Part shown: piece by piece, positions 39,623-53,613 of the stretch | Layout of the letters: every line of letters begins with the position of its first letter | Numbering within the stretch: position 1 is the first letter of the stretch | NCBI GenBank assembly: GCA_963813535.1 | Contig: CAWEZH010000002.1 | Location: 1,696,001 to 1,760,000 of the forward strand | Length of the DNA stretch: 64,000 nucleotides | Origin: an uncultured Chloroflexia bacterium | Lineage (GTDB): Bacteria; Chloroflexota; Limnocylindria; Limnocylindrales; CSP1-4 | Direction: 5' to 3' | Made by a program: the position numbers and the translations under genes | The notes under the pieces: model-generated | Database searches by the model: none | Told to the model about the DNA's origin: nothing | What the model saw: the letters and a program-made list of their open reading frames with translations, nothing else

Positions 39623-40492
39623 CAGGCGGTCGGCCGCGGCTTGCCGTCGCGCGACGTCAAGCTGGGCTTCGAGCTGATCGCCAAGTTCGACGGTGCGGCG
39701 GAATGCCGCCCAGACCGCCTCCGACAGCACGGTCCGCAGGCGCCCGCTTTCGAGCTCATGGAGGGCCGCCGCAGAGGTGCCGCCGGGCGACGTGACCATG
39801 TTCCGCAGCTCGGCCGGATGCATGCCCGACTGGCGTGCGAACACCGTCGAACCCTCGAGCGTCTCGATGACGAGGTCATGCGCGATGTGGCGCGGGAACC
39901 CGAGGTGGACGGCGGCGTCGATGAGCGCCTCCATGACGAGGAACACATATGTCGGGCCGGTGCCGCTGACGGCGGTCGCCATCGCGACCATCTTCTCGTC
40001 ATCCACCTCGAGCTGGTGCCCGAGAGCGCCGAGCAGGGCGGCGGCCTGCGCACGTTGCGTTTCCGTCGTCTCGGGCGTGGCATACCAGACCGTCACGCCC
40101 TTCCCGAGGCGGGCCGGCGTGTTGGGCATGCTGCGCACGACCTGGTCGTGCCCGAGGATGCCGGTCAGGGCCGCGGTCGTGGCGCCGGCCAGGACGCTCA
40201 GGACCAACTGCCCGCGACGCAGGTGCGGGCCGATGTCGCGGCCGACGCGGTCCAGCATCTGCGGCTTGATCCCGAGCAGGATCACGTCGGCGTCGCGGAC
40301 CGCGTCCGCGTTGGCGCTGACGGTGCGGATGCCGTACTCGCGCTCGAGTGCCTCTCGGCGCTCGGCGCGCGGATGGCTGGCGACGACGCGCTCGGGTCCG
40401 ACGAGGCCGTCGCGGAGCAGGCCCGCGATCATCGCCTCGGCCATCACCCCCGAGCCGACCGTCGCGATCGTGGCTTTCGACAGGGGCGACAC
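39622..40492 (-). CDS. proC: Pyrroline-5-carboxylate reductase; extra base near 39659
   Basis: GSGVMAEA, KPQ, RSMPNTP, SGTGP.Y, VTSPGGTS. TATACT lies 6 nt before GTG 40492. Removing one T gives QLTSRDGKPRPTA-stop. Confidence 0.9.
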
Positions 40493-40539
40493 GGCCGGAG
40501 TATAGCCACGGCCCCCGGCCGACCCGCGATGCCGGACCG

Positions 40540-41479
40540 TCAGGTAGGGCCAGGCGCTGCGCGTGCCGTTCCGAGCAAGGAAGAAGCGGCCGGTGGTCGT
40601 GATGTCGATGTCGTCGAAGCCGGCGGCCTCCAGCGCGCGCGCGAGCTCATCCGGCGCGTAGAACACCTTCACGATCGTGAACTCCCGGCCGTCGTCCAGC
40701 CGACGGGTCGACCGATCGTCAGCGGGTTCGGCGTGGTCGGCGGCACCGGATGCCGGATCCGCGAGCGAATCGATGAACGCGATCCGACCGCCCGCCTTCA
40801 GCCAGCGCCGGGCGATGGCCAGGGACTCCGCGAGTCGCTCGCGCGGGACGTGGCTGAGCCAGAACCCCATGAACAGGCCGTCGACCGCACGATCGGGCTC
40901 CGACCACGCGTCGCGCACGTGCAGGTGCGCCCGGAGTCCGTGAGCAACCAGGCGTTCACGCGCCCGGTCGAGCGCAGCCGGCGAGGCGTCGTACAGCGAA
41001 AGCTCGCCCCTGGACGCCAGCAATGGCGACCACCAGCCGGTCCCGGCGGCGAGCTCCACGATCTCACCGGCCCATGGCAGGGCGTCCAGCCAGCGCCCGG
41101 CGGCGTCCAGCTCGGCGTTCCATGCCGCGTCGTGGATCGCGCCGCGCGCGTAGCGACCACGGCGGAGGTACCAATCGTCGTACTCGGGCGCCCGGGCCTC
41201 GTAGTACTCGACCATCTGGGCGTCGAGGTCGGCATCGCGGCGCCGGTCCTCCGGTTCCCGTTCCGCCACGACCACAGCCGCCGCCGCGGTCCCGTCGCCG
41301 CGGGCTGCGGCGGCCCGCTCCCCCAGGGCCTGTCGCAACCGGAAGCGCAGGAACCCGTTGTCGCCAGCCTTGCCGACACAGTCCGGGCAGAGTTGCGCCC
41401 ACCCTTCGAGGTCGTCCGACGAACGCGTGGCATAGGTAGTCCCGCACCACAGGCACGAGAAGGACGCCAGGAAGGGCAC
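40540..41479 (-). CDS. Class I SAM-dependent methyltransferase with N-terminal CxxC/CxxC domain; extra base near 40577
   Basis: YYEARAPEYDDWY, ELAAGTGWW motif I, FWLSHVP. Removing one T gives FFLLGTARAAPGPT-stop. Confidence 0.82.
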
Positions 41480-42412
41480 TCAGCCGACCTCGACCGGTGC
41501 CCATCCGCCGGGCGGTGCGACGTCGACGAACCCCTCCGGATCCATGATCTCGGCCAGCATCTCGACGCCGTCGATGACACGCGGTCCAGGCCGGGAGAAG
41601 TACGCCGACCCATCGACCGCGAACACGGCGCCCGAACGCACGGCCGCAAGATCGCCCAGCCACGCCGGGTGCGGCGTCCTGGACCACTCATCGATCGTCT
41701 CGGCCAGGTGGAACCCGCAGGGCATCAGGAACACCATCTCGGGATCGACCTCGGCCACCGCATCCCACGTCGTGGCGTGCGATCTCTGCTCGTCGGCGCC
41801 GAGCAGGTCCCAGCCCCCGGCCCGACGGATCTGCTCGGGGACCCAGTGGCCGACGGCGAAGGGCGGATCGAGCCATTCGAGGCCGACCACGCGGACCGGC
41901 GATCGGCCGGCGTCCCGCCGACGGGCGACACGCTGCTCGACCGCGCCGAGCCGTTCGCGCAGCAATTCGACGAGGTCGATGGCGGCATCCTCGACCTCGG
42001 CCATGGCGCCGACGGTCGTGATGGTGTGGAGGATCCCCTCGATCGAGGTCGGCTCGAGCGACACGACCGTGATATCGGCATCGATCCGGCGCGCGACTTC
42101 GTTGACCTCCTGGTAGCTGACGGCGCACACGTGGCACAGCTCCTGGGTCAGGATCAGGTCTGGCTCCGTCGCGGCGAGCGCCTCCTCGTCGAGCTCGTAC
42201 AGCGACGACCCACCGTGCATCGCCGCCGTGACCCGCGCATGGATGTCGCGCGACGACGCCGTCGCGAGGTCGTGGACGCTCCGTGTCACGACGGGCTTGC
42301 CGACAACCGCCGGCGGCCAGTCACATTCGTGGGTCACCGCCACCAGCTCGTCCTGGAGCCCGATGGCGCAGACGATCTCGGTAGCCGACGGAAGAAGAGA
42401 CGCGATCCTCAT
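41480..42412 (-). CDS. BtuF/TroA-like cobalamin or iron-complex binding protein with no signal peptide
   Basis: MRIASLLPSATEI, VTHECD.P, LTQELC.VCA, EWLDP, GHWVPE, SRPGPR. Confidence 0.82.
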   Translation of the reverse strand: MRIASLLPSATEIVCAIGLQDELVAVTHECDWPPAVVGKPVVTRSVHDLATASSRDIHARVTAAMHGGSSLYELDEEALAATEPDLILTQELCHVCAVSYQEVNEVARRIDADITVVSLEPTSIEGILHTITTVGAMAEVEDAAIDLVELLRERLGAVEQRVARRRDAGRSPVRVVGLEWLDPPFAVGHWVPEQIRRAGGWDLLGADEQRSHATTWDAVAEVDPEMVFLMPCGFHLAETIDEWSRTPHPAWLGDLAAVRSGAVFAVDGSAYFSRPGPRVIDGVEMLAEIMDPEGFVDVAPPGGWAPVEVG

Positions 42413-42494
42413 GGGTCAGGTGCTGGCTACTGGCACCCTCAGCGGGGAGGTGTCACACGCGCACCGAGGCCTGAGGCGGAGCTCTGCGACGCCA

Positions 42495-42788
42495 TCAGCC
42501 CGAGGTAGGTTTGAGCTCGTCGACCGAGGCGCGGGCCGCCGCCTTGTCCGTGTACCAGGTCGCGTCGATCACCGTGTACTGGGCCCACTCGGGCGGCAGC
42601 GACTCCTCGGGGAAGATGGCGTTCACCGGGCACTCCGGCTCGCACGCTCCGCAGTCGATGCATTCATTCGGGTCGATGAACAGCTTCCGGTCCACGCCCT
42701 CTTCGTAGTGGATGCAGTCGACCGGACAGACGGATACGCACGAGATGTCGAGCACGTCGATACACGGCTCGGCGATCACGTAGGTCAT
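42495..42788 (-). CDS. fdxA: 7Fe ferredoxin
   Basis: MTYVIAEPC...C...CPVDCI and CIDCGACEPECP; GAGGAGG RBS. Confidence 0.92.
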   Translation of the reverse strand: MTYVIAEPCIDVLDISCVSVCPVDCIHYEEGVDRKLFIDPNECIDCGACEPECPVNAIFPEESLPPEWAQYTVIDATWYTDKAAARASVDELKPTSG

Positions 42789-42989
42789 CCGGTTCCTCCT
42801 CGAGGCTGGAAAGGGTCGATGGATCGTCAGGAAAGCGCGTGGCGAGAGCGTACCACCGTGCGTGCGGCGGGTCCGTTCGCCCTGGCTGTGCCACGCCTCG
42901 CGCGCCGACCTTGACACGTCAGGGGTCGCGTCGCATCGTTCGCGCACCCGTCACCCCCGGGCTGAACGCGCGAGCAGCAGTGAGGGCGC

Positions 42990-44135
42990 TTGGCCATCCC
43001 GACCGACATCCGTGACCCGAACGCGAGTGCGGGCCCGGGTTCGTCGACGCCGTCCGTGACGACCGCGTCGGCGGCGATACCAGCCGTCCGCCTCGAGGGG
43101 GTCGAGAAGCGCTACGGCGACGTCGTCGCCGTAGATGGCATCGACCTCGACGTGCGCGACGGTGAGTTCTTCTCGATGCTCGGGCCGTCGGGCTCGGGCA
43201 AGACGACGACCCTCCGGATGATCGCCGGCTTCGAGCAACCGACAGCCGGTCGGATCCTGCTCCACGGCGGCGACGTCACCGGCGTCCCGCCGTTCGACCG
43301 TGACGTGAACACGGTGTTCCAGGACTACGCGCTGTTTCCCCATCTGAGCGTGGCCGACAACGTCGCGTACGGGCTGATGGTCCGCAAGGTCAAGCGCGAC
43401 GAGCGTCTCGCCCGCGTGAAGGACGCCCTGCGCATGGTCCGGCTGGAAGGCTATGACAAGCGCAAGCCGGGCCAGCTGTCCGGTGGCCAGCGCCAGCGCG
43501 TCGCACTGGCTCGGGCGCTCGTCAACCGTCCGCGCGTGCTGCTGCTCGACGAACCGCTTGGCGCGCTCGACCTGAAGCTGCGCGAAGAGATGCAGATCGA
43601 GCTCAAGGCGATCCAGCAGCAGGTCGGCATCACGTTCATCTACGTGACTCATGACCAGGAAGAGGCACTCACGATGAGCGACCGCCTGGCGGTCTTCAAC
43701 GCCGGCCGGATCGAGCAGCTCGGCTCGCCCGCCGAGGTCTACGAACGACCGGCTACACGGTTCGTCGCAGGTTTCGTCGGGACGTCGAACCTCCTCACCG
43801 GCGACGTCGCGGGGACGGTGCTTGGCAGGGCCGGCAGCTTCACGATCCGTCCCGAGAAGATCCGGCTGGCGTCGATCGATGGCGTGCCCGGGCCCGACGA
43901 ATCGTCGGCCCTCGGCACCATCCAGAGCGTCGTCTATCTCGGCCCCGACACGCGGTACATCGTCGAGCTGGAGGCCGGCGCCCGGCTCGTGGTGACCGAA
44001 CAGAACCTGTCGACCACCTCGACCGAGGTGCTCGAGCAGCAGGGCAAGGCTGTCCGCCTGATCTGGAAGCGACAGCACGAGCTACCCGTCGCCGACGGAA
44101 GTCGATCCGTGGAGGAAGAGGAGGAGACCCCATGA
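42990..44135 (+). CDS. Polyamine ABC transporter ATP-binding protein (PotA-like)
   Basis: [40 protein letters not shown] region. Confidence 0.9.
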
Positions 44136-45310
44136 TCCATCGAAGGCTGCTGGCACTCGCCGGCGCCGCCTCGCTCGTCATCGCTGCGTGTAGTGGTACC
44201 GGGTCGGGGACACCCGCTCCCAGCCTCCCGACGTCGGTCGGTGAAGGAGAGGGTGCGCTCTCAGTCCTTGCGTGGCCGGGCTACGCCGAGAACGGGTCGA
44301 CCGACCCGGCTGTCGACTGGATCACCCCGTTCGAAGAGGCCACGGGGTGCAAGACCGAGGTGCAGGTGTTCGGCAGCTCGGACGAGGCCTTCAGCCTGTT
44401 CACCACCAACCCCGAGAAATTCGACGTCATCTCCGCATCCGGCGATGCGAGCCTGCGGCTTGTCCGAGCCGGCTATGTCGAGCCGGTCAACGTCGACCTC
44501 GTTCCGAGCTATGCGGACGTGTTCCCGGCACTCAAGGACAAGCCGTACAACACCGTGGACGGCGTGCACTATGGCGTCCCTCACGGCCGCGGCTCGAACC
44601 TTCTGATGTGGCGGACGGATGACGTCGATCCGGCGCCGACGACCTGGGCGGAGATGTTCGACCCCTCGTCGGCATTCGCGGGCAAGGTGTCGGTCTACGA
44701 CGCCCCGATCTACATCGCCGATGCGGCCGTCTTGCTGATGTCGACCAAGCCGGACCTGGGCATCAAGAACCCGTACGCCCTCGACGACACCCAGTTCCAG
44801 GCAGCTGTCGATCTGCTCAAGCAGCAGAAGCCGATGATCTCCCAGTACTGGGTCGACTACACGAAGCAGATGGATGCGTTCCGCAACGGTGACGCCACCG
44901 TCGGGACGACGTGGCAGGTCATCACGAACCTGCTGCAGGGCGAGGATCCGGCCGTCCCGGTCGAGGTCATCAAGCCGCCGGAAGGTGCCACTGGCTGGTC
45001 CGACACGTGGATGATCAATTCCAAGACGACCCACCGGAACTGCGCCTACAAGTTCATCGATCACATCGTTTCGCCAGCGGTGAACATCCAGGTCGCCGAG
45101 TGGTTCGGCGAGGCCCCTGGCAATTCGAAGGCGTGCGCGCTGGCGACGACGCCGGAGCATTGCGAGATCTTCCATGCGGACGATGACGCCTTCTGGGAAG
45201 ACGTCTGGTATTGGCAGACCCCGGAAGCCAAGTGCGTTGACGGTCGCACCGACAAGACGTGCAAAGACTTCGACGCATGGGTGACGGCCTGGACGGAGAT
45301 CAAGGGCTGA
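44132..45310 (+). CDS. Polyamine ABC substrate-binding lipoprotein (PotD/YdcS-like)
   Basis: Lipobox IAAC, WPGY, SGDAS, EGATGW.DTW. Confidence 0.88.
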
Positions 45311-45383
45311 GCGCGCCCTCTCCGAGGGCAGCTACCGCAGCGGCCCGGACCCCGGCGGGGCCCGGGCCGCATATCGTTCGACG

Positions 45384-46290
45384 ATGACGGCGAGCGACGG
45401 GGTGGCGACGACGGTCCCTCTCTCCGGATCGCGGCGTGTGGCCGCGGCCCTCTATCGCCGACCACGGCTCCGGCTCGGATTGCTGCTCGCCGGGCCCGTG
45501 GGCTGGCTCGTCGTGGCGTATCTCGGGTCGCTCGCCATCTTGTTTCTGAACGCCTTCTGGACGCGCGATCCGTTCACTGGCCTCGTCATCCGCGAATTCA
45601 CGCTGGACAACTTCGCCGAGGTCGCGACCGATCCGCTCTATCGGACTGTCACGCTGCGGACCGTGGGCATGGCATTCGCGGTGACGCTCACGTGCATCGT
45701 GCTGGCGTTTCCGATCGCCTACTACATGGCGCGCGTCGCCTCGCCCCGGGTCCGCGGCCTGATGGTCGTGGCCGTTCTGATGCCACTCTGGGCGAGCTAT
45801 CTCGTCAAGGCCTACTCGTGGCGGCTGATCCTGTCCGAGGACGGTGTGCTCAATTGGTTCCTTGCGCCGTTCGGGCTGCGGGGGCCCGGGCTGGGGGAAG
45901 GCATGGTCGGCCTCTGGATCGTGTTCACCTACCTGTGGCTGCCGTACATGATCCTGCCGATCTACGCCGGCCTCGAGCGGATCCCCGCCTCACTGCTGGA
46001 AGCCTCCGCGGACCTTGGAGGGCGGAGCTTCACGACCTTTCGGCGGGTGGTCCTGCCCCTCGCGTTCCCCGCGGTCGTGGCTGGCTCGATCTTCACCTTT
46101 TCGCTGACGCTCGGCGACTACATCGCGCCGGGGCTCGTGACGACGACGCAGTTCATCGGCACGCTGATCCTGTCGCGTTTCGGGGTCCCGGATCTGCCAC
46201 TTGCGGCCGCGCTCTCGATCGTGCCGCTCGCGATCATGGTCGGCTACCTGCTCGTCGCGCGGCGCCTTGGGCGCCTTCGAGGCGCTGTGA
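45384..46290 (+). CDS. Polyamine ABC permease (PotB-like); extra base at 46267-46271
   Basis: EASADLG EAA loop. Removing one base gives RRLGAFEAL-stop with a TGATG overlap. Confidence 0.87.
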
Positions 46291-47084
46291 TGAGCGGCCG
46301 GCTCGGTCGAGGGGCCCTCGGTCTGGTATCGATCGCGGTGCTGGCGTTCATGTACTTCCCGTTGGCCCTGATCGTCGTGTATGCCTTCAACGAGAGCGGC
46401 ACATCGGCGTGGCCTCCGTCTGGGATCTCGCTCAGATGGATCGCGCTGGCACTTGAGAACAGTGGGCTCCGTCAGGCCTTCATCACGTCGTTGGCGGCAG
46501 CGCTCGGGGCGACACTGATCGCCCTGCTCCTGGGGACACTCGCGGCCCTCGCAGTCGCTCGGTATCAATTCTTCGGGCGCGAGGCGATCTCATTCGTGGT
46601 CATCTTCCCGATCGCGCTGCCGGGCATCGTGACGGGCATGGCGCTGAGCACGACATTCGCCACGACAGGCGTGCCTCTCGGGCTCTTCGCGATCGTCATC
46701 GGTCACGCCACGTTCTGCATCGTGCTCGTCTATAACAACGCGATCGCCCGCCTTCGGCGGACCTCCGCATCGCTCGAGGAGGCGTCCTCCGACCTCGGCG
46801 CGGATAGCTGGCAGACGTTCCGGCGGGTCACCTTGCCCAGCATGCGGTCGGCGATGCTCGCCGGAGCGCTCCTGGCATTCGCGCTGTCATTCGACGAAGT
46901 GATCGTGACGATCTTCCTTGCGGGCGGCGTCCAAACGCTGCCCATCTGGATCTTCCAGAGTTTCCGACTGGCGAATCAGCTTGCGCTGGTGAACGTCGCG
47001 GGTCTCGTGGCGATCCTCCTGTCGGTCATCCCGGTGTACATCGCGACCCGGATCAGCACCGGCGTCGCGGGCGCCCGGACCTGA
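46290..47084 (+). CDS. Polyamine ABC permease (PotC-like)
   Basis: YAFN, EEASSDLGA, FALSFDE, TLP. Confidence 0.88.
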   Translation: MSGRLGRGALGLVSIAVLAFMYFPLALIVVYAFNESGTSAWPPSGISLRWIALALENSGLRQAFITSLAAALGATLIALLLGTLAALAVARYQFFGREAISFVVIFPIALPGIVTGMALSTTFATTGVPLGLFAIVIGHATFCIVLVYNNAIARLRRTSASLEEASSDLGADSWQTFRRVTLPSMRSAMLAGALLAFALSFDEVIVTIFLAGGVQTLPIWIFQSFRLANQLALVNVAGLVAILLSVIPVYIATRISTGVAGART

Positions 47085-47090
47085 GGCGAC

Positions 47091-47174
47091 TCACCAGCGA
47101 CGAGCGAGATCGCCGATCAGGGCGAGGGCGACGGGCAGCAGGGCGACGAGGGACTGGCGGATGCGTTCAGACAT
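47091..47174 (-). CDS. Micro-peptide MSERIRQSLVALLPVALALIGDLARRW (27 aa), signal-peptide-like
   Basis: GGAGG at 47186-47190 on the minus strand, high GC3 codons, ARRW terminus shared with 36365-36466. Below the ORF-track cutoff. Confidence 0.72.
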   Translation of the reverse strand: MSERIRQSLVALLPVALALIGDLARRW

Positions 47175-47303
47175 GGGCGGCTCGACCTCCGCCGGACCCG
47201 GTACCGGCTCGCTCGACGGCCGACCCCATCGAGGAGTGCCCGGTCGTATGCCGTGGCGGCCAGTATCGCCACGGCCGCTTAGCTGCGGCTTATCAGCCGC
47301 GCG

Positions 47304-47474
47304 TCACATCGACGGGACGTAGTCGGGATCGAGGTACTTCTGCGGGTCGTCCTTGAAGTCCAGCAGGCACCCCTTGCTGCAGAACCAGTACGTCGTGCCC
47401 TCGTGGTCGTACGACAACAGCGACGTCGTCGTGTCCACCTTCATCCCACAGACGGGATCGATCTCGACGGCCAT
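47304..47474 (-). CDS. YHS domain protein
   Basis: DPVCGM.V...Y.FCS.GC...F..DP..Y; AAGGAGG RBS. Confidence 0.9.
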   Translation of the reverse strand: MAVEIDPVCGMKVDTTTSLLSYDHEGTTYWFCSKGCLLDFKDDPQKYLDPDYVPSM

Positions 47475-47490
47475 CGGACGCCTCCTTGAG

Positions 47491-47505
47491 TACTCCCCCG
47501 GAGTA
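47491..47505. promoter_or_regulatory. CsoR-type palindrome upstream of the YHS gene
   Basis: TACTCC-CCC-GGAGTA overlapping minus-strand TATACT; same arms as the copA box. Confidence 0.68.
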
Positions 47506-47550
47506 TAGCCGCCGGTCACGCATGGCCGCCACCGAGCGTACAGTCCGACC

Positions 47551-47895
47551 ATGACCGAGCCCGACACGACGTCCGCCCGCGCCGCCTTGAAGGTCGAGCG
47601 TGCCCGGCTGCTCGCCGAGCTCGGTGAGGCGATCCAGGCACCCGGCCAGATGACCTACGGGTCGCAGGCGGCCGCGGCCAGCCAGGTCTTCGAGCAACAG
47701 CGCGATCTCGCCCTTCGCGACCATGCGACCCAGCAGCTCGAGCTCGTCGACGCGGCGCTCGAGCGCCTGGACGCCGGGAGCTTCGGCACGTGCCTGCGCT
47801 GCGGCAAGCCGATCGCGCCGGCGCGGCTCGAGGCGCTGCCGTGGGCGGCGCACTGCATCGAGTGCCAGAGCGCGGTCGACAAGGGTCGCCGGTGA
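47551..47895 (+). CDS. TraR/DksA C4-type zinc-finger protein
   Basis: AL.RLD.G.FG.CLRCG..I...RLEALPW...CIEC. TACAGT lies 6 nt upstream. Confidence 0.88.
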   Translation: MTEPDTTSARAALKVERARLLAELGEAIQAPGQMTYGSQAAAASQVFEQQRDLALRDHATQQLELVDAALERLDAGSFGTCLRCGKPIAPARLEALPWAAHCIECQSAVDKGRR

Positions 47896-48887
47896 CGACG
47901 GTAGCCCCGGCGGACCTCGTCGGCATCGACGCGATCCGGGAGGCGGCCGATCGCCTCCGTGGGGTCGTCGTCCATACACCGTTGGTGCCGTACGTCGCGC
48001 CACCCGACGGCGTCTTCATCAAGGCCGAAAGCCTCCAGCCGATCGGGGCCTTCAAGATCCGCGGCGCGTACAACGCGATCGCCTCGCTGACCGACGGCGA
48101 GCGAGTGCGCGGCGTCATCACCTACTCCTCCGGCAATCACGCCCAGGGCGTCGCCCGTGCGGCGCGACTGCTGGGGACTCGGGCGGTGGTCGTGATGCCC
48201 GACGACGCCCCGACCATCAAACGCGACCGCGTCGCGGACGACGGTGCCGAGATCGTCATCGTCGGGCCTGCATCGGAGGAGCGCCAGGAACGGGCTGAAG
48301 CGATCGCCGCCGAGCGGGGACTGGCGATCATCCCGCCGTTCGACGACGACCGGATCATCGCCGGTCAGGGCACGATCGGGCTCGAGATCGTCGAGGACCT
48401 GTCGGCCACGGAGCTGATCCTCGTCCCGGTCGGTGGGGGCGGCCTGGCGAGCGGCGTCGCGGCCGCGGTCAAAGCGATCAGGCCGGACATCCGCGTCATC
48501 GGCGTCGAGCCTGAGCTCGCGGCCGATGCCCGCGACTCGCTGCGTCGTGGCGAGATCGTCCGCTGGTCCGCGGCCGATGTGTCCCGGACGATCGCCGACG
48601 GCACCCGTACGCAGGCGCTCGGAGCGCGGACGTTCGCTCACCTCCGGGCGCACCTCGACGACATCGTGACCCTCACCGAGGCGGAGATCGCCGGGGGCGT
48701 ACGGCTCACCGCGGAGCGGGCTCGGCTGGTCGTCGAGCCCTCGGGTGCGCTCGCCGTCGCTGCCGTCGCATTCCGACGCGGCGAGCTCGGGATCGGGGGT
48801 GGCGGTGTCACGGTGGCTGTCGCGAGCGGCGGCAACGTGGAACCGGCGGCTTTCCGGGCCTATCTCGAGGCGCCACTCCCGGGCTGA
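47892..48887 (+). CDS. PLP-dependent threonine/serine dehydratase family protein
   Basis: KAESLQ.IGAFKIRGA, SSGNHAQG, VGGGGL, VEPSGA, SGGN. GTGA overlap with the upstream gene. Confidence 0.9.
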   Translation: MTTVAPADLVGIDAIREAADRLRGVVVHTPLVPYVAPPDGVFIKAESLQPIGAFKIRGAYNAIASLTDGERVRGVITYSSGNHAQGVARAARLLGTRAVVVMPDDAPTIKRDRVADDGAEIVIVGPASEERQERAEAIAAERGLAIIPPFDDDRIIAGQGTIGLEIVEDLSATELILVPVGGGGLASGVAAAVKAIRPDIRVIGVEPELAADARDSLRRGEIVRWSAADVSRTIADGTRTQALGARTFAHLRAHLDDIVTLTEAEIAGGVRLTAERARLVVEPSGALAVAAVAFRRGELGIGGGGVTVAVASGGNVEPAAFRAYLEAPLPG

Positions 48888-49948
48888 GGATCGGGCGTCG
48901 CCTCGGGCGCCTCCCGTCGCAGGCGCTCCGCGAGTCGCTTCTCCCGGTCGCGGATGAGGGCCATCTCCTCCGCCGCCCGCCTGTCCGTCCGGACGGCGTC
49001 GCGACTCTCGGCACGCGACCAACCGAGGAGGATCGCCAAGGTGGCGGCGAGGAAGATCATGTCGCCGATGACCCACATGAAGGCTGCGGCGATCTGCTGA
49101 TCCTCGAGCGGCGTGGGACCCCACGACCGCTGGACCGTGGCGTAATGCGGGTACAGCACGGTCTGGGCGTTGAGGATCACGACCGCAAGGAACGTGTTCT
49201 GGGTCATCTGGAGGAACACGTAGAGCGCTCGTGCCGGGTGCGACATCCGCCAGGGCGCCGGGTCAAGCGCGACGGCGGGCCACCAGAAGAGCAAGGCCGC
49301 ACCGAGGTAGACCGCGTGTTCGAAGTCGTGGATGAGCGGGTCCTCGAGCGCCGCGTCGAACAGCGGCGAGAAGTGGCTGACCCAGAGCACGCCCGCGAAG
49401 ATGAGCCACGCCACCACCGGGAACGCGAGGAAGCGCATCACGCGGCTGTGGAGGATCGGCAGGATCCAGCGGCGCCGGGTCGCCGGCGAGGAGACGCGGA
49501 GGATGAGCGTCACCGGCGCCGAGAGCGCGATGAGGGGCGCGACCACCAGCGTCAGGAGCACGTGCTGGACCATGTGGATCGAGAAGAGGGTCGTGTCGTA
49601 GCGATCGATCCCGGAAAGCAGGGCGAACGCCAAGGCGACCATCCCGCCGACGAACGCCATGGACCGACGACGAGGCACGGGGTTGGCGGGGTGGGCGACA
49701 TCGACCCGCCGCACGGCCCAGAACCACCAGGCGAGTGCGACGAGGATGCCCAGGGTCGGTAACGGCTCGAACGTCCAGCCGAGAAGGAGCGAGGCCGGCG
49801 TGGGCGGTTCGGTCGGGGCGGGTCCATGCGCCGCCACGGGGACCGCGGCGACGGCGACCCCGACGACGGCGCCGACCGTCGCGAGGCCGGCTACCGGCGT
49901 CCGCGCACGGTGTCGCCCCGCGGATCCGACGGCGCTCGTGATGCGCAT
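48860..49948 (-). CDS. ctaG: Cytochrome c oxidase assembly factor, Caa3_CtaG family
   Basis: LFSIHMVQH..L, H..EH, FWW, DQQ.AA..MW..GD. Start is approximate. Confidence 0.85.
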   Translation of the reverse strand: MRITSAVGSAGRHRARTPVAGLATVGAVVGVAVAAVPVAAHGPAPTEPPTPASLLLGWTFEPLPTLGILVALAWWFWAVRRVDVAHPANPVPRRRSMAFVGGMVALAFALLSGIDRYDTTLFSIHMVQHVLLTLVVAPLIALSAPVTLILRVSSPATRRRWILPILHSRVMRFLAFPVVAWLIFAGVLWVSHFSPLFDAALEDPLIHDFEHAVYLGAALLFWWPAVALDPAPWRMSHPARALYVFLQMTQNTFLAVVILNAQTVLYPHYATVQRSWGPTPLEDQQIAAAFMWVIGDMIFLAATLAILLGWSRAESRDAVRTDRRAAEEMALIRDREKRLAERLRREAPEATPDPQPGSGASR

Positions 49949-50093
49949 GTCCGCATCGTCCCACGCCGCGTCGCGCACCGCCTCGAGCCGATGTAGCGGC
50001 CGCGCGATGCGCCGATGGTGCGCGGTAATATGACGATGGTCCGACCCGGGCGGGTCCGGACGCGTCCGCCTCCCACCCGCACCGAGGAGCTGC

Positions 50094-51275
50094 ATGGCGA
50101 GTTCCCCCAGGACCGGCCGCTCATCCGTCGGGATGGTCGCGTTGGTGGTCGGCGCACTCCTGCTCCTCGGGGCCGCGATGGTGATCGTCCTGGGGTTCGA
50201 CCCGGTTCGGGTCAGCCAGGGGGTCCTGGCTAGCTTCTTCCCGCCGCAGGCGATCACGGACCGTGGCGCCAAGATCCGCGAGCTCTACGACCTCGTGTTC
50301 GGGATCGCGGTCGTCATCTTCTTCGTGGTCGAGGGACTGATCGTCTGGAGTGTCATCCGCTACCGACGCCGGCCTGGTGATGACGAGCTGCCACCACAGA
50401 CCCATGGCAACGCGATCGCCGAGGTCGTCTGGACGGTCGTGCCGACGATCATCGTCGCGGTCATGTTCGTGGCGTCATGGGCGACGCTGAACACCGTGGA
50501 AGCCACGTCACCGGCTCCGGAGCACAAGGTGCGCGCAGTGGCCGCGCAGTTCCTGTGGACGTTCGACTACATGCCCGACGATTACGACCCGAAGTCCACG
50601 AAGGAGTTCGAGCCGCTCTATACGGTGACCACGCCCGAGGGCCCCGACGGCGGTCTGACGTTGCCCGTCGGTCGGACGATCCACCTGTACCTGCAGAGCC
50701 CAGACGTCATCCACGCGTTCTATGTCCCCCAATTCCTGTTCAAGCGCGACGTGGTCCCCGGCCGGGTGAACAACTTCGAGTTCACGCTCAATGAGCAGGA
50801 CGCGGGCGGGACATTCCATGGGCAATGCGCCGAGCTGTGCGGTTCCGGTCACAACTCGATGCACTTCGATGTCCACGCGATGGCCGCAGCGGAATTCGAC
50901 ACATGGCTCGAGACCAAGATCGCCGAGGCCGCGGCGTCGCCGCCACCCCCGCCGTCGGGTGAGCCCGGTCAGTCAGGCGAGCCGGCGGGCGGCCCCGTCC
51001 TGATGCTGGCCGCCGAGCAGGTCGCGTTCGACACGGCCGAGTTGTCCGCGCCCGCCGACACCCCATTCAAGATCGAGTTCGACAACCGCGACCCGTCGAT
51101 CCCGCACAACGTGGCGATCCACGAGGGATCCCCGACGGGTCCCGAGGTCTTCCGTGGCGAAGTCTTCCCCGGCCCGGCCAAGAAGACATACGACGTACCG
51201 GCGTTGCAGGCCGGTAGTTATGGCTTCATCTGCTCGGTCCATCCGACCATGGCCGGCACACTCACGGTCCAGTAG
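50094..51275 (+). CDS. coxB: Cytochrome c oxidase subunit II with extra C-terminal cupredoxin
   Basis: HGN...E..WT..P, DVIHAF, CuA motif CAELCGSGHNSM, Pro linker, then PHNV...CSVHPTM. Confidence 0.92.
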   Translation: MASSPRTGRSSVGMVALVVGALLLLGAAMVIVLGFDPVRVSQGVLASFFPPQAITDRGAKIRELYDLVFGIAVVIFFVVEGLIVWSVIRYRRRPGDDELPPQTHGNAIAEVVWTVVPTIIVAVMFVASWATLNTVEATSPAPEHKVRAVAAQFLWTFDYMPDDYDPKSTKEFEPLYTVTTPEGPDGGLTLPVGRTIHLYLQSPDVIHAFYVPQFLFKRDVVPGRVNNFEFTLNEQDAGGTFHGQCAELCGSGHNSMHFDVHAMAAAEFDTWLETKIAEAAASPPPPPSGEPGQSGEPAGGPVLMLAAEQVAFDTAELSAPADTPFKIEFDNRDPSIPHNVAIHEGSPTGPEVFRGEVFPGPAKKTYDVPALQAGSYGFICSVHPTMAGTLTVQ

Positions 51276-51284
51276 GAGTCCATC

Positions 51285-52952
51285 GTGGCGACAACCGCGC
51301 TCCACCCGGCCGCCTCCACGTACCGCAGCACCCTGTACGAGTGGATCACGACCACCGATCACAAGAAGATCGGGATCATGTACCTGATCAACTCGTTCCT
51401 CTTCTTCTTCATCGGAGGGCTGCTGGCACTCGGCGTGCGCACAGAGCTCGCCCAGCCCGGTCTGCAATTCGTCTCCGACCAGACCTACAACGAGCTGTTC
51501 ACGATGCACGCCACGTTCATGATCTTCCTGTTCATCATCCCGATCCTGGCGGGCTTCGGGAACTACATCGTGCCGCTCCAGATCGGCGCGCCCGACGTCG
51601 CCTTCCCGCGCATCAACGCCCTGTCGCTGTGGATGCTGCCGATGGCCGGGATCCTGCTGCTGCTGAGCTTCTTCGTCGGCGGTGCGCCGGCAGCGGGCTG
51701 GACGAGCTACGCGCCACTCAGCGAGGACCGGCCACTCGGGGCGGTCGGCCCCGGCCAGGACCTGTGGCTCGTCGCGGTGGTCCTGATCGGGACCAGCTCG
51801 ATCCTCGGCGCCGTGAACTTCCTCGTGACGATCTTCAAGATGCGGGCGCCCGGCATGACCCTCTTCCGGATGCCGATCATGGTCTGGACCGTGCTGGTCA
51901 CGTCGGTGCTGGGACTGCTCGCCACGCCGGTCCTGACCAGTGCCCTGATCATGCTGTTCATCGACCGCAACTTCGGCGGCAGCTTCTTCGACCCGCGGAA
52001 CGGCGGCGACGCGATCCTGTACCAGAACACGTTCTGGTTCTACTCACACCCCGCCGTGTACATCATGGTCCTGCCCGCGATGGGCATGATCAGCGAGATC
52101 CTGCCGGTCTTCAGCCGCAAGCCGCTGTTCGGCTACAAGGCGTTCGTCTTCGCCACCGCCGCCATCGGCGCGCTGGGCTTCTCGGTCTGGGCACATCACA
52201 TGTTCACGACCGGGGCGGTCTACTTGCCGTTCTTCAGCCTCATGACGTTCCTCATCGCCGTGCCGACCGGCGTGAAGATGTTCAACTGGGTCTTCACGAT
52301 GTGGCGCGGGAAGCTGAGCCTGTCGACACCACTGCTGTTCGCGCTCGGCTTCCTGAGCATGTTCCTCATCGGCGGCATCAATGGCGCCTTCTCCGCCGCG
52401 GTCCCGGTCGACTTCGCCCTGCACGACACGTACTGGGTCGTGGCCCATCTCCACTACGTCCTGTTCGGCGGATCGGTGTTCGGCGTGATGGCCGGCCTCT
52501 ACTACTGGTTCCCCAAGATGACCGGCCGGATGCTCGGCGAGGGTCTCGGCAAGGTCCAGTTCGTGCTGATGTTCATCGGCTTCAACCTGACGTTCTTCCC
52601 GATGCATCAGCTCGGCCTGGCCGGCATGCCGAGGCGGATCGCGGACTACTCGTCGACCGCGGGCTGGAACGATCTCAACCTCGCGGCGACGGTGGGCGGC
52701 TTCCTGATCGCGACCAGCATGCTGCCGCTGCTCTGGAACATCTTCGTCTCCCTCCGCAGCGGCAAGCCGGCCGGCGACGATCCGTGGGAGGGCAACACCC
52801 TCGAATGGGGGACGAGCTCACCACCACCGTCCTACAACTTCGACCACCTGCCGGACATCCGGTCGGAGCGGCCGATCTTCGACATGCGGCACGGTCACGC
52901 CGCGCCCGCCGCGACGACCCCGCTGCCCCAGTCGGCCTCGGGGAGCGATTGA
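51285..52952 (+). CDS. coxA: Cytochrome c oxidase subunit I, A2-type
   Basis: TDHKKIG, TMHA, WFYSHPAVY (YS motif), WAHHM, HDTYWVVAHLHY, GMPRR. Confidence 0.96.
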   Translation: MATTALHPAASTYRSTLYEWITTTDHKKIGIMYLINSFLFFFIGGLLALGVRTELAQPGLQFVSDQTYNELFTMHATFMIFLFIIPILAGFGNYIVPLQIGAPDVAFPRINALSLWMLPMAGILLLLSFFVGGAPAAGWTSYAPLSEDRPLGAVGPGQDLWLVAVVLIGTSSILGAVNFLVTIFKMRAPGMTLFRMPIMVWTVLVTSVLGLLATPVLTSALIMLFIDRNFGGSFFDPRNGGDAILYQNTFWFYSHPAVYIMVLPAMGMISEILPVFSRKPLFGYKAFVFATAAIGALGFSVWAHHMFTTGAVYLPFFSLMTFLIAVPTGVKMFNWVFTMWRGKLSLSTPLLFALGFLSMFLIGGINGAFSAAVPVDFALHDTYWVVAHLHYVLFGGSVFGVMAGLYYWFPKMTGRMLGEGLGKVQFVLMFIGFNLTFFPMHQLGLAGMPRRIADYSSTAGWNDLNLAATVGGFLIATSMLPLLWNIFVSLRSGKPAGDDPWEGNTLEWGTSSPPPSYNFDHLPDIRSERPIFDMRHGHAAPAATTPLPQSASGSD

Positions 52953-52956
52953 CGCG

Positions 52957-53613
52957 ATGAGCACCGACAGCCACGCCCTGACGACGCAGGAGCACAGCCC
53001 GGTCGCGGGTCTGGCGCACGACTCCCGCGGCGGCATCAGCAATGTCGTCCTGGGGATGCTGCTGTTCATCACCTCGGAGGTGATGTTCTTCGCCGGGCTG
53101 TTCGCCGCGTATTTCAACGTCCGCGCGAATGCTCCGTCGTGGCCGCCGATCAACGCCGAGACCGGCGAGCCGTTCCACCTCGAGATCCTGCCGCTCGTCG
53201 GTCCCGCGACGGTCCTGCTGATCCTGTCGTCGTTCACCTGTCAGTTCGCCGTCTGGGCGATCCGGCGCGACGACCGGACGGCGTTCCTGCGCAACATCGG
53301 CGTCACGTTCGTCATCGGCGTCGTCTTCCTGCTCATGCAGGGCACCGACTACATCCTGCTCGCCAACGAGGGCATCACGATGTCGGCGGGCACGTTCGGC
53401 ACGACGTACTTCACGCTGACCGGCTTCCACGGGGCGCACGTCTTCGGAGGGGCGATCATGCTCGCGGTCGTGCTCTATCGCGGCCTCGCCGGCCAGTTCT
53501 CGTCGCGCCACCATGACGCGGTCGAGGCGGTGTCGTTGTACTGGCACTTCGTCGACGTCGTGTGGATCCTGCTCTTCTCGTTGCTCTACCTGCTGCCCGG
53601 GACGGCGGGCTAG
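52957..53613 (+). CDS. coxC: Cytochrome c oxidase subunit III
   Basis: FITSEVMFF, TGFHGAHV, YWHFVDVVW. Confidence 0.93.
   Translation: MSTDSHALTTQEHSPVAGLAHDSRGGISNVVLGMLLFITSEVMFFAGLFAAYFNVRANAPSWPPINAETGEPFHLEILPLVGPATVLLILSSFTCQFAVWAIRRDDRTAFLRNIGVTFVIGVVFLLMQGTDYILLANEGITMSAGTFGTTYFTLTGFHGAHVFGGAIMLAVVLYRGLAGQFSSRHHDAVEAVSLYWHFVDVVWILLFSLLYLLPGTAG

Follow-up and report, generated by a model that had tools for sequence, protein, structure and literature searches.

What is a 27-codon open reading frame (ORF) doing between a permease gene and a YHS-domain gene, and why does its end reappear in a second, unlinked ORF of the same genome? The question arises in a window of 64,000 nucleotides (nt), the whole stretch of DNA analysed here, which spans C2:1696001-1760000 of a 3.28-Mb soil Chloroflexota assembly (3 contigs, 69.4% G+C). 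The original prediction, made from the letters of the window, had picked out two micro-ORFs, which we call F1 and F2, with a common C-terminal motif [DE]-x-A-R-R-W, and had taken them for dispersed precursors that could yield nearly identical mature signals. We find that F1 is, judged from its relatives, a conserved gene, that it has at least two unlinked paralogs in its own genome, and that the C-terminal tails of these paralogs change in concert. F1, its Shine-Dalgarno sequence, the YHS gene and F2 lie as follows.

47091..47174, minus strand: F1, 27 residues plus stop, with its ATG start codon at 47172-47174
47185..47190, minus strand: Shine-Dalgarno sequence GGAGGT, a 10-nt spacer away from the F1 ATG; its columns are invariant in alignment A4
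47304..47474, minus strand: YHS-domain gene encoding 56 residues (Pfam PF04945, E 3.8e-16), the usual upstream neighbour of F1
36365..36466, plus strand: F2, a micro-ORF of 33 residues plus stop, with the tail L-E-A-A-R-R-W-N

Conservation of the micro-ORF F1

The position of F1, the GGAGG ahead of it and the distance of about 10.6 kb to F2 on the opposite strand were all confirmed from the sequence, and the translation in the ORF listing matches the one quoted earlier. F1 has a basic N-terminal end, a 14-residue hydrophobic core and the tail D-L-A-R-R-W. Its stop codon lies 6 nt away from that of a convergent ATP-binding cassette (ABC) permease gene (45384..47084). The YHS gene ends 129 nt upstream of F1 on the same strand, on which F1 has no adjoining membrane-protein gene.

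A 1-kb DNA query around F1 matched 31 of 41 related genomes and returned 12 full syntenic loci, all of the same genus. Every one of the 12 carries a micro-ORF of 25-34 codons between the permease and YHS genes and on the YHS strand, and in the ten genus loci inspected GGAGGT stands 5-10 nt ahead of an ATG or GTG (10/10). Pairwise identity to the first sequence of the F1 alignment is 12-40%, and the sole invariant residue is a Trp; the frame, the start signal, the basic N-terminal end, the hydrophobic core and a near-terminal [K/R]-W are conserved, and most residues change. Since frame and signals are kept while residues change, the pattern is that of a translated small protein whose physical features are selected. 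The F1 profile (A2), run over 161 genomes of the family, gave mostly matches within large ORFs and was useless beyond the genus. Among 30 YHS loci sampled across the family from genomes of other genera, 20 have, at most 700 nt after YHS and on its strand, a micro-ORF whose core is hydrophobic and which ends in [K/R]-W, whereas the controls gave none on the opposite strand (0/30) and none upstream on either strand (0/30 on each). Conservation in relatives, by which the original prediction had proposed to judge the ORF, was thus found within the genus and beyond it, and on these alignments F1 is a genuine conserved gene. At one genus locus, L235 (G002:C13:800-1200), the F1 ORF has an internally duplicated tail, in which L-G-L-K-W occurs twice, 9 residues apart.

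Frequency of the tail motif

The regular expression that the original prediction had given for the tail, run in six frames over the whole 3.28-Mb genome, returned two matches, F1 and F2. Twelve order-3 Markov simulations of the genome returned 2-8 matches (mean 4.25), so that the tail alone occurs at chance frequency, without the enrichment over a shuffled-type control that would have spoken for the motif. When an M was required 18-40 residues before the tail, the two observed matches compared with a simulated mean of 0.5, and when at least 14 of the 15 preceding residues had to be hydrophobic or small, with a mean of 0.17; in this last version one such ORF appeared in 2 of the 12 simulations and two in none (0/12). 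The motif count is a modest statistic, suggestive and on its own undecided. F1 counts as more than chance because it is conserved in relatives, not because of the motif count; a count at chance level can conceal a real family, which conservation then brings to light.

One family with at least three unlinked paralogs

Profiles of F1 and F2 do not detect each other in their own genome at E values up to 10, and an hhalign comparison of the two profiles aligned just the 6-residue tail, with a probability of 35%. Many YHS-linked micro-ORFs of other genera end in the F2-type L-E-A-G-x-R-W, and because these sequences bridge both groups, F1 and F2 can be placed in one family. A combined profile, searched against 58,000 ORF tails of the own genome, ranked F2 (64.0 bits), F1 (23.7 bits) and a third micro-ORF, F3 (13.5 bits), at the top, the best reversed control reaching 11.0 bits.

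Genome position C2:1855578-1855673, about 95 kb past the window end: F3, the third paralog

F3 is flanked by a divergent gene for a cupredoxin-domain lipoprotein (C2:1854857-1855369) and by a convergent gene for an 866-residue TPR-LuxR regulator (C2:1855831-1858431). It is conserved in five of five genus genomes checked; its profile found it in 64 of 71 genus genomes, as a single copy in 63 of these 64. In relatives, DNA of the neighbouring cupredoxin gene has matches at several sites around the F1 locus.

When 42 sequences of all types are aligned, the Trp never changes, and Arg11 and Arg31, 20 positions apart, are each at least 90% conserved, the interval between them being filled, by composition, with hydrophobic or small residues. 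This layout fits a single membrane helix, and it is from composition only that we infer membrane insertion. The original prediction had F1 and F2 share one layout, which is right for the basic N-terminal end, the core and A-R-R-W, but F2 ends in ARRWN rather than ARRW.

F1 matches no Pfam or NCBIfam family (0 families) and F2 only Pardaxin (E 0.47; score 10.6 against a cut-off of 25 bits); against NCBIfam, none of the 42 family members matched (0/42). A profile search of 1.84 billion representative proteins returned 197 at E<=0.001, nearly all of them about 30 residues long or longer gene calls with the match C-terminal, and ESM Atlas holds unnamed clusters of 33-34 residues. A pattern scan of 185,579 species genomes yielded 42 confirmed loci, 40 of them in records labelled Chloroflexota, Chloroflexia, Anaerolineaceae or Candidatus Limnocylindrales/Limnocylindria and two from bins otherwise labelled. 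As far as profiles and patterns tell, the micro-ORFs are one family restricted to Limnocylindrales-type Chloroflexota, whose unlinked paralogs in the own genome number at least three. Of the dispersed precursor family proposed earlier, the family stands on the bridging LEAG-x-RW tails, whereas a cleaved and released mature signal finds no support.

Concerted change of the tails

The conserved tail unit is [A/G]-x-[K/R]-W, which is the same within a genome across unlinked paralogs and different between lineages. First, the four tail residues of F1 and F3 were identical in all 16 genus genomes first compared, and F3 correctly predicted the F1 tail in G016 and G009 (both GHKW), G012 (GLKW), G015 (GRRW) and G013 (GHRW), and that of one F1 copy in G002 (GLKW). 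F1 and F3 thus have identical tails in 22 of 22 genomes with both copies. Second, the tails of F2 and F3 agree in 16/16 genus genomes. Third, F1 and F2 carry like tails in all genus genomes compared (12/12); in other genera they do so in 7 of 8 genomes, agreement on GKRW in G084 and G116 having been predicted ahead. The tails of the three paralogs co-vary at the amino-acid level. Ten states were seen (ARRW, GRRW, GLKW, GMKW, GQKW, GNRW, GVKW, GIKW, GHKW and GHRW), and in the tails listed G/A is followed by R, L, M, Q, N, V, I, H or K and never by Cys, so that they have no lipobox. The residues after the Trp (0-3) do not co-vary and differ between paralogs of one genome.

The motif [DE]-x-A-R-R-W as first proposed does not hold as a conserved unit, for the acidic residue is not conserved and A-R-R belongs to a single clade. 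A tree built from one neighbouring protein groups the ARRW genomes in one supported clade (99/97). A-R-R-W is the state of this clade, which holds the own genome, and all three paralogs went from G to A there. The remaining states sit on separate, mostly unresolved lineages of that tree; given these separate lineages, each paralog has shifted state at least seven times among 16 genomes, and on the same lineages. Genus genomes with F2 have RRW in 16 of 16 cases, and F2 was not found in the six genus genomes with a non-RRW tail that were within the F2 profile search. Across the genus, the diversification of x, to L, M, Q, N, V, I or H and in F3 alone also to A and Y, is confined to genomes in which F2 was not found.

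Gene conversion between paralogs, or a constraint at the nucleotide level, might keep the tails alike without any shared function of the tail residues, and the F1 and F3 tail codons are indeed identical in G017 and G020. In 14 of the 16 genomes, however, F1 and F3 spell the four tail residues with different synonymous codons, the codons ahead of the tail and the DNA past the stop are unrelated, and the mutual blindness of the F1 and F2 profiles in the own genome points the same way. Differing synonymous codons together with unrelated flanks argue against both gene conversion and nucleotide-level constraint, an explanation that we find scarcely credible. The claim that the tail is under selection is borne out.

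Tails that change in concert suggest that something reads them. We tentatively favour, as a distinct possibility, that F1 is a translated single-pass membrane micro-protein of about 27-35 residues whose tail would be read by a shared, co-evolving partner. Each paralog would consist of a basic N-terminal end, a membrane-length helix bracketed by the two Arg residues and [A/G]-x-[K/R]-W at the helix end; one common putative partner protein would recognise the tail, and a shift in its specificity would carry the tails of all paralogs along. By its family-specific helix each paralog would attach to its local surroundings, in the case of F2 possibly to the DUF5317 protein described below, and the micro-proteins would presumably act uncleaved. 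The neighbourhoods hint at a shared metal/respiration theme, with YHS, Caa3_CtaG, COX1 and COX3 genes near F1 (the last three all at most 6 kb away) and the cupredoxin gene beside F3; this describes the setting and does not testify to a function. The oxidase genes were located as follows, positions 50094-51275 being outside the scan.

48860-53613: region of a Caa3_CtaG assembly-factor gene (minus strand) and the adjoining cytochrome c oxidase operon
51285-52952: COX1
52957-53613: COX3

F2 and the neighbouring DUF5317 gene

F2 is far better conserved than F1, with 14 invariant positions in six genus sequences. Among the 201 genomes of the order, its profile (A1) gave a match in 56, every one in a single family; counted by family, 55 of 158 genomes have it versus 0 of 42 in a sister family whose genomes measure 1.1 Mb, and it reaches 15 of 32 genera. 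Among 43 distinct F2 sequences the summed entropies at first, second and third codon positions are 19.4, 12.6 and 28.8, that is, third above first above second, and the ratio of nonsynonymous to synonymous polymorphism (pN/pS) is 0.49. Within the genus the profile search did not find F2 in 12 of 29 genomes, and a convergent Peptidase_S9 gene near F2 (36567-38585) persists where F2 is missing. On the same strand, 171 nt upstream of F2, lies the following gene.

35636..36193, plus strand: gene for a DUF5317 membrane protein (Pfam PF17248, E 1.3e-27) of 185 residues from GTG 35636, the start being set by an N-terminal end conserved in 34 homologues

In other genera second F2-type copies likewise stand behind a second DUF5317 paralog, often with a further micro-ORF type directly upstream. 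This further type, which begins with M/V-K-A-N-L-A-R-F and ends in G-A-G-x-R-W, forms tandem micro-ORF pairs with these copies, and the database protein P0001 (70 residues) spans both micro-ORFs of such a pair.

L063-L065, L070, L071, L073, L075, L076 and L078, other genera: tandem-type loci behind a DUF5317 paralog

The own genome also has a second DUF5317 copy (C3:758502-761948, L085), which forms the N-terminal portion of a long ORF whose remainder resembles transporters of the major facilitator superfamily (MFS); it follows a gene for a membrane HD-domain (HD-GYP-like) protein, and many relatives share the fused form of about 680-780 residues.

DUF5317 is possibly a partner of F2, a candidate suggested by the gene order and by its recurrence with the paralogous pair. 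The DUF5317 structure model is confident, with a predicted local distance difference test (pLDDT) score of 88.1 and a predicted template modelling (pTM) score of 0.82. The predicted complex of DUF5317 and F2 reached a median score of 0.47 over three runs (0.11, 0.47 and 0.63), the best of three controls scoring 0.00, and gives weak support. The runs agree in at least 25% of contacts with a partner pLDDT of at least 50. In the calibration 58 of 80 solved complexes and 2 of 110 mismatched pairs came up to the mark, just seven of those 80 and both passing mismatches lying at 0.60 or below; custom alignments were used, which makes these counts only rough. No clear structural relative of DUF5317 emerged from Foldseek against the PDB (best E 1.6), a PDB sequence search gave 0 matches at E<=10, and a wide VIA-align comparison reached a best Z of 6.7 with generic helical bundles, among which peptidases do not stand out. 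That DUF5317 might be an intramembrane aspartyl peptidase gained no support: its sole peptidase match is Peptidase_A8 (E 0.69), and no clear structural relative was found. An apparent DUF5317-F2 fusion in G098 (L044, on C7) was rejected: the DUF5317 gene is frameshifted near its last helix and the frame runs into F2, so that this is no true fusion, and the frameshift may be an assembly error or a real lesion.

Several observations weigh against membrane micro-proteins with a shared reader of the tail and against DUF5317 as the local partner of F2. A complex score at the level of the DUF5317/F2 pair is more often wrong than right unless the complex was likely beforehand. DUF5317 occurs in 154 of 158 family genomes versus 55 of 158 for F2, which makes phyletic co-occurrence with F2 uninformative, and at four genus loci DUF5317 has no F2-like ORF behind it; as DUF5317 is common without F2, it has no need of F2. 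Concerning the tails, G133 has GMRW in F1 and GQRW in F2, extra copies named F2b and F4 in G152 and G098 carry GQRW or GMRW beside ARRW in F2 and F3, and G002, a bin of 540 contigs in which the locus occurs three times, has one F1 with the matching GLKW and one with a non-matching GRRW. F1 itself was not found in stretches from G023, G004, G006 and G005, nor at L120 of G098, and the profile search gave no F1 match in G123, G098, G006, G152 and G105. The single-protein tree leaves 7 of its 14 inner branches unresolved, and related genomes are not independent. Finally, the strict hydrophobic core is short (14-15 residues) and could also be the h-region of a signal peptide.

Precursor, addressing and oligomer models

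A short core of this kind would suit a precursor, in which the basic N-terminal end and the core serve as an export or insertion leader, a cut at or near the G/A releases or displays x-[K/R]-W as a 'pherotype' for a co-evolving receptor, and several genes with different promoters yield the same signal. The tail indeed differs among species and is uniform inside each genome, which is what one expects of a signal and its receptor; ahead of x there is without exception a small residue, which is A in one clade and G otherwise; and a conserved N-terminal part with a polymorphic, Trp-bearing C-terminal end is reminiscent of ComX-type pheromone precursors. F3 adjoins the gene for the 866-residue regulator with TPR and LuxR-type helix-turn-helix domains, and TPR domains bind short peptides. 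Furthermore, the three upstream regions have no common motif of at least 9 nt except one 11-mer at differing distances. Against this, F2 is conserved along the whole peptide across genera and not in the tail alone, and the Arg pair 20 positions apart suits a membrane-spanning helix. Past the Trp, paralogs of the same genome have different residues, which would make their products unlike unless trimmed, and with F2 conserved over its whole length the nearly identical mature signals that the original prediction had envisaged find no footing. Nor did the scanned neighbours (DinB_2, DUF5317, Peptidase_S9, ABC importer parts, YHS, DksA/TraR, PALP, Caa3_CtaG, COX1, COX3, cupredoxin and TPR-LuxR) include a peptidase, exporter or modifying-enzyme family apart from the convergent S9 peptidase; no known tailoring or export family of ribosomally synthesised and post-translationally modified peptides (RiPPs) was among them, some ORFs having no Pfam match. 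The DUF5317 model, for its part, offers no clear fold match. Altogether we consider the precursor model unlikely.

A wider form of the same thought holds that the tail is a species-specific recognition code, in which unlinked, separately controlled micro-genes beside metal and respiration genes would show or release one short [A/G]-x-[K/R]-W peptide to one co-evolving reader. The TPR-LuxR regulator beside F3 and DUF5317 may be candidate readers in that case. We see this as improbable on the whole, if less so than the precursor model.

No outside reader would be necessary if the paralogs formed a membrane helix bundle in which like tail residues touch. That the x residues within a genome are identical, not complementary, suits such symmetric self-contact, small-residue runs (A-S-S in F2, G-P in F3) could aid helix packing, and other genera have the tandem micro-ORF pairs described above, one of them read through by a database protein. 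With F2 missing in 12 of 29 genus genomes and F1 not found in several, however, the partner set is not constant, and in G152 and G098 the F2b and F4 copies, whose tails differ, stand beside ARRW copies. A hetero-oligomer of this kind is decidedly unlikely in our estimate. We keep, tentatively, to a shared partner that would read the tail of uncleaved membrane micro-proteins.

Elements upstream of F1 and F2

Two elements between the YHS gene and the Shine-Dalgarno sequence stand out in alignment A4, and an inverted repeat lies on the far side of the YHS gene.

47278..47292, minus strand: box TAAGYCGCAGCTAAG, just past the YHS stop codon, with invariant columns in A4
47233..47245, minus strand: leader motif GAYCGGGCACTCC, between the box and the Shine-Dalgarno sequence, invariant or nearly so in A4
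47491..47505, minus strand: perfect inverted repeat TACTCC-GGG-GGAGTA, 17 nt ahead of the YHS start

For the TAAGYCGCAGCTAAG box, one may think of a promoter, an operator or a stop-proximal element. The upstream element is retained with the micro-ORF in G014, where a non-YHS gene lies upstream. The exact 15-mer TAAGCCGCAGCTAAG of the F1 box occurs only once elsewhere in the genome, at C3:270501-270515 (about 0.006 expected by chance). There it likewise lies directly past a stop codon, ahead of a gene for a ComEA-like helix-hairpin-helix protein.

That F1 is downstream of the YHS gene and that an inverted repeat stands ahead of the latter, as described earlier, are both seen in the sequence. 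The label 'CsoR-type box' for this repeat is a putative one; the sole CsoR-family gene of the genome (PF02583) lies on another contig, at C3:954237-954473. Copper-linked expression of F1, which the original prediction had called possible, would be conceivable, but F1 has a conserved upstream element of its own, the one that accompanies it in G014 in the absence of YHS. The statement that the paralogs differ in their upstream regions holds as well, the 11-mer mentioned above being all that F1, F2 and F3 have in common at 9 nt or more. A search of Rfam over 35000-49000 at E values up to 1 gave one chance-level snoRNA row and nothing at F1 or F2. Elsewhere in the window, two long ORFs overlap on opposite strands (38603-42508, plus strand, 1301 residues; 38552-41479, minus strand, 975 residues), and the plus-strand ORF at 38603-42508 has no Pfam match at E up to 1e-5.

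The leader and the gene arrangement bear on a further explanation, by which the micro-ORFs are multi-copy hydrophobic peptides that damage membranes like type I toxins and are held in check by an antisense RNA and a structured leader. A size of about 30 residues, one hydrophobic helix and several dispersed intergenic copies are what one would expect; F1 converges with the permease gene at a distance of 6 nt, so that read-through transcripts would be antisense, and the conserved 5' leader holds CUCC, which could mask the Shine-Dalgarno sequence. RNAalifold, however, gave the leader no covariation support (-10.48 kcal/mol, with a covariation term of +1.28), and the pairs around GAYCGGGCACTCC never vary. 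A scan of 46950-47600 for sites of the sigma-70 type only revealed no promoter-like site on either strand, and no intrinsic terminator was found there. Moreover, the synteny with core genes is stable over many genera with one copy per site, and the concerted change of the tails has no role in a toxin model, which is therefore very unlikely to apply.

Significance and relation to known systems

Genome annotation mostly overlooks proteins of less than 50 residues, few of which offer a functional handle. Here three unlinked genes shift their four-residue tails together, nine times or more inside a single genus, which suggests a specific reader; such a reader should be findable by its co-variation in the same genomes. 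If the reader were a receptor or regulator, it would belong to the first peptide recognition system described in Limnocylindria, which are abundant uncultured Chloroflexota of soil and freshwater; a recognition code, if true, would add a new peptide-based means of signalling or addressing to Chloroflexota, which are not known to use peptide signals. If it were a membrane complex, for example one tied to copper proteins or to cytochrome oxidase, the micro-proteins would be a new set of accessory subunits. The literature listings searched contained no mention of DUF5317 and nothing joining names that begin with Limnocylindr to small open reading frames. As far as these listings go, concerted change of a C-terminal tetrapeptide in unlinked micro-genes has not been described before.

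The likenesses to known systems are partial. The sorting signals LPXTG and PEP-CTERM are C-terminal and are read by one dedicated enzyme, sortase or exosortase; they resemble the tails in being short motifs by a hydrophobic helix, present in several unlinked genes per genome and dependent on lineage. In the family described here, however, the whole micro-protein is the 'signal', without a cargo domain, and the order is basic end, helix, motif, whereas theirs is motif, helix, basic end. ComX-type and Phr-type peptides are pheromone precursors of Firmicutes, with which the micro-ORFs share a short ORF, a more conserved N-terminal part, a polymorphic C-terminal end and an invariant Trp with few variable residues behind it. 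The differences are that no isoprenyl transferase, Rap-type or histidine-kinase gene was seen adjoining F1 or F2, and that the micro-proteins have a helix of membrane length, several genes per tail and a place in the phylum Chloroflexota. The type I toxins TisB, Fst, Ldr and Ibs are alike in size, in their single hydrophobic helix and in their multiple dispersed intergenic copies, and differ in that the micro-ORFs keep their synteny across genera, change their tails in concert and lack the patchy, mobile distribution.

Small membrane proteins are a known kind, of which the micro-ORF family itself is an unnamed one. KdpF, CydX, AcrZ and MgrB are small single-helix accessory proteins of bacterial membrane complexes, and no concerted tetrapeptide change is known in them. 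Like these, the micro-proteins have about 30 residues, one helix with charged flanks and a Shine-Dalgarno sequence of their own, and F2 lies 171 nt behind a gene for a polytopic membrane protein on the same strand. Unlike them, they are unrelated to Pfam and NCBIfam families, come as at least three unlinked paralogs and carry a C-terminal tetrapeptide that changes in concert.

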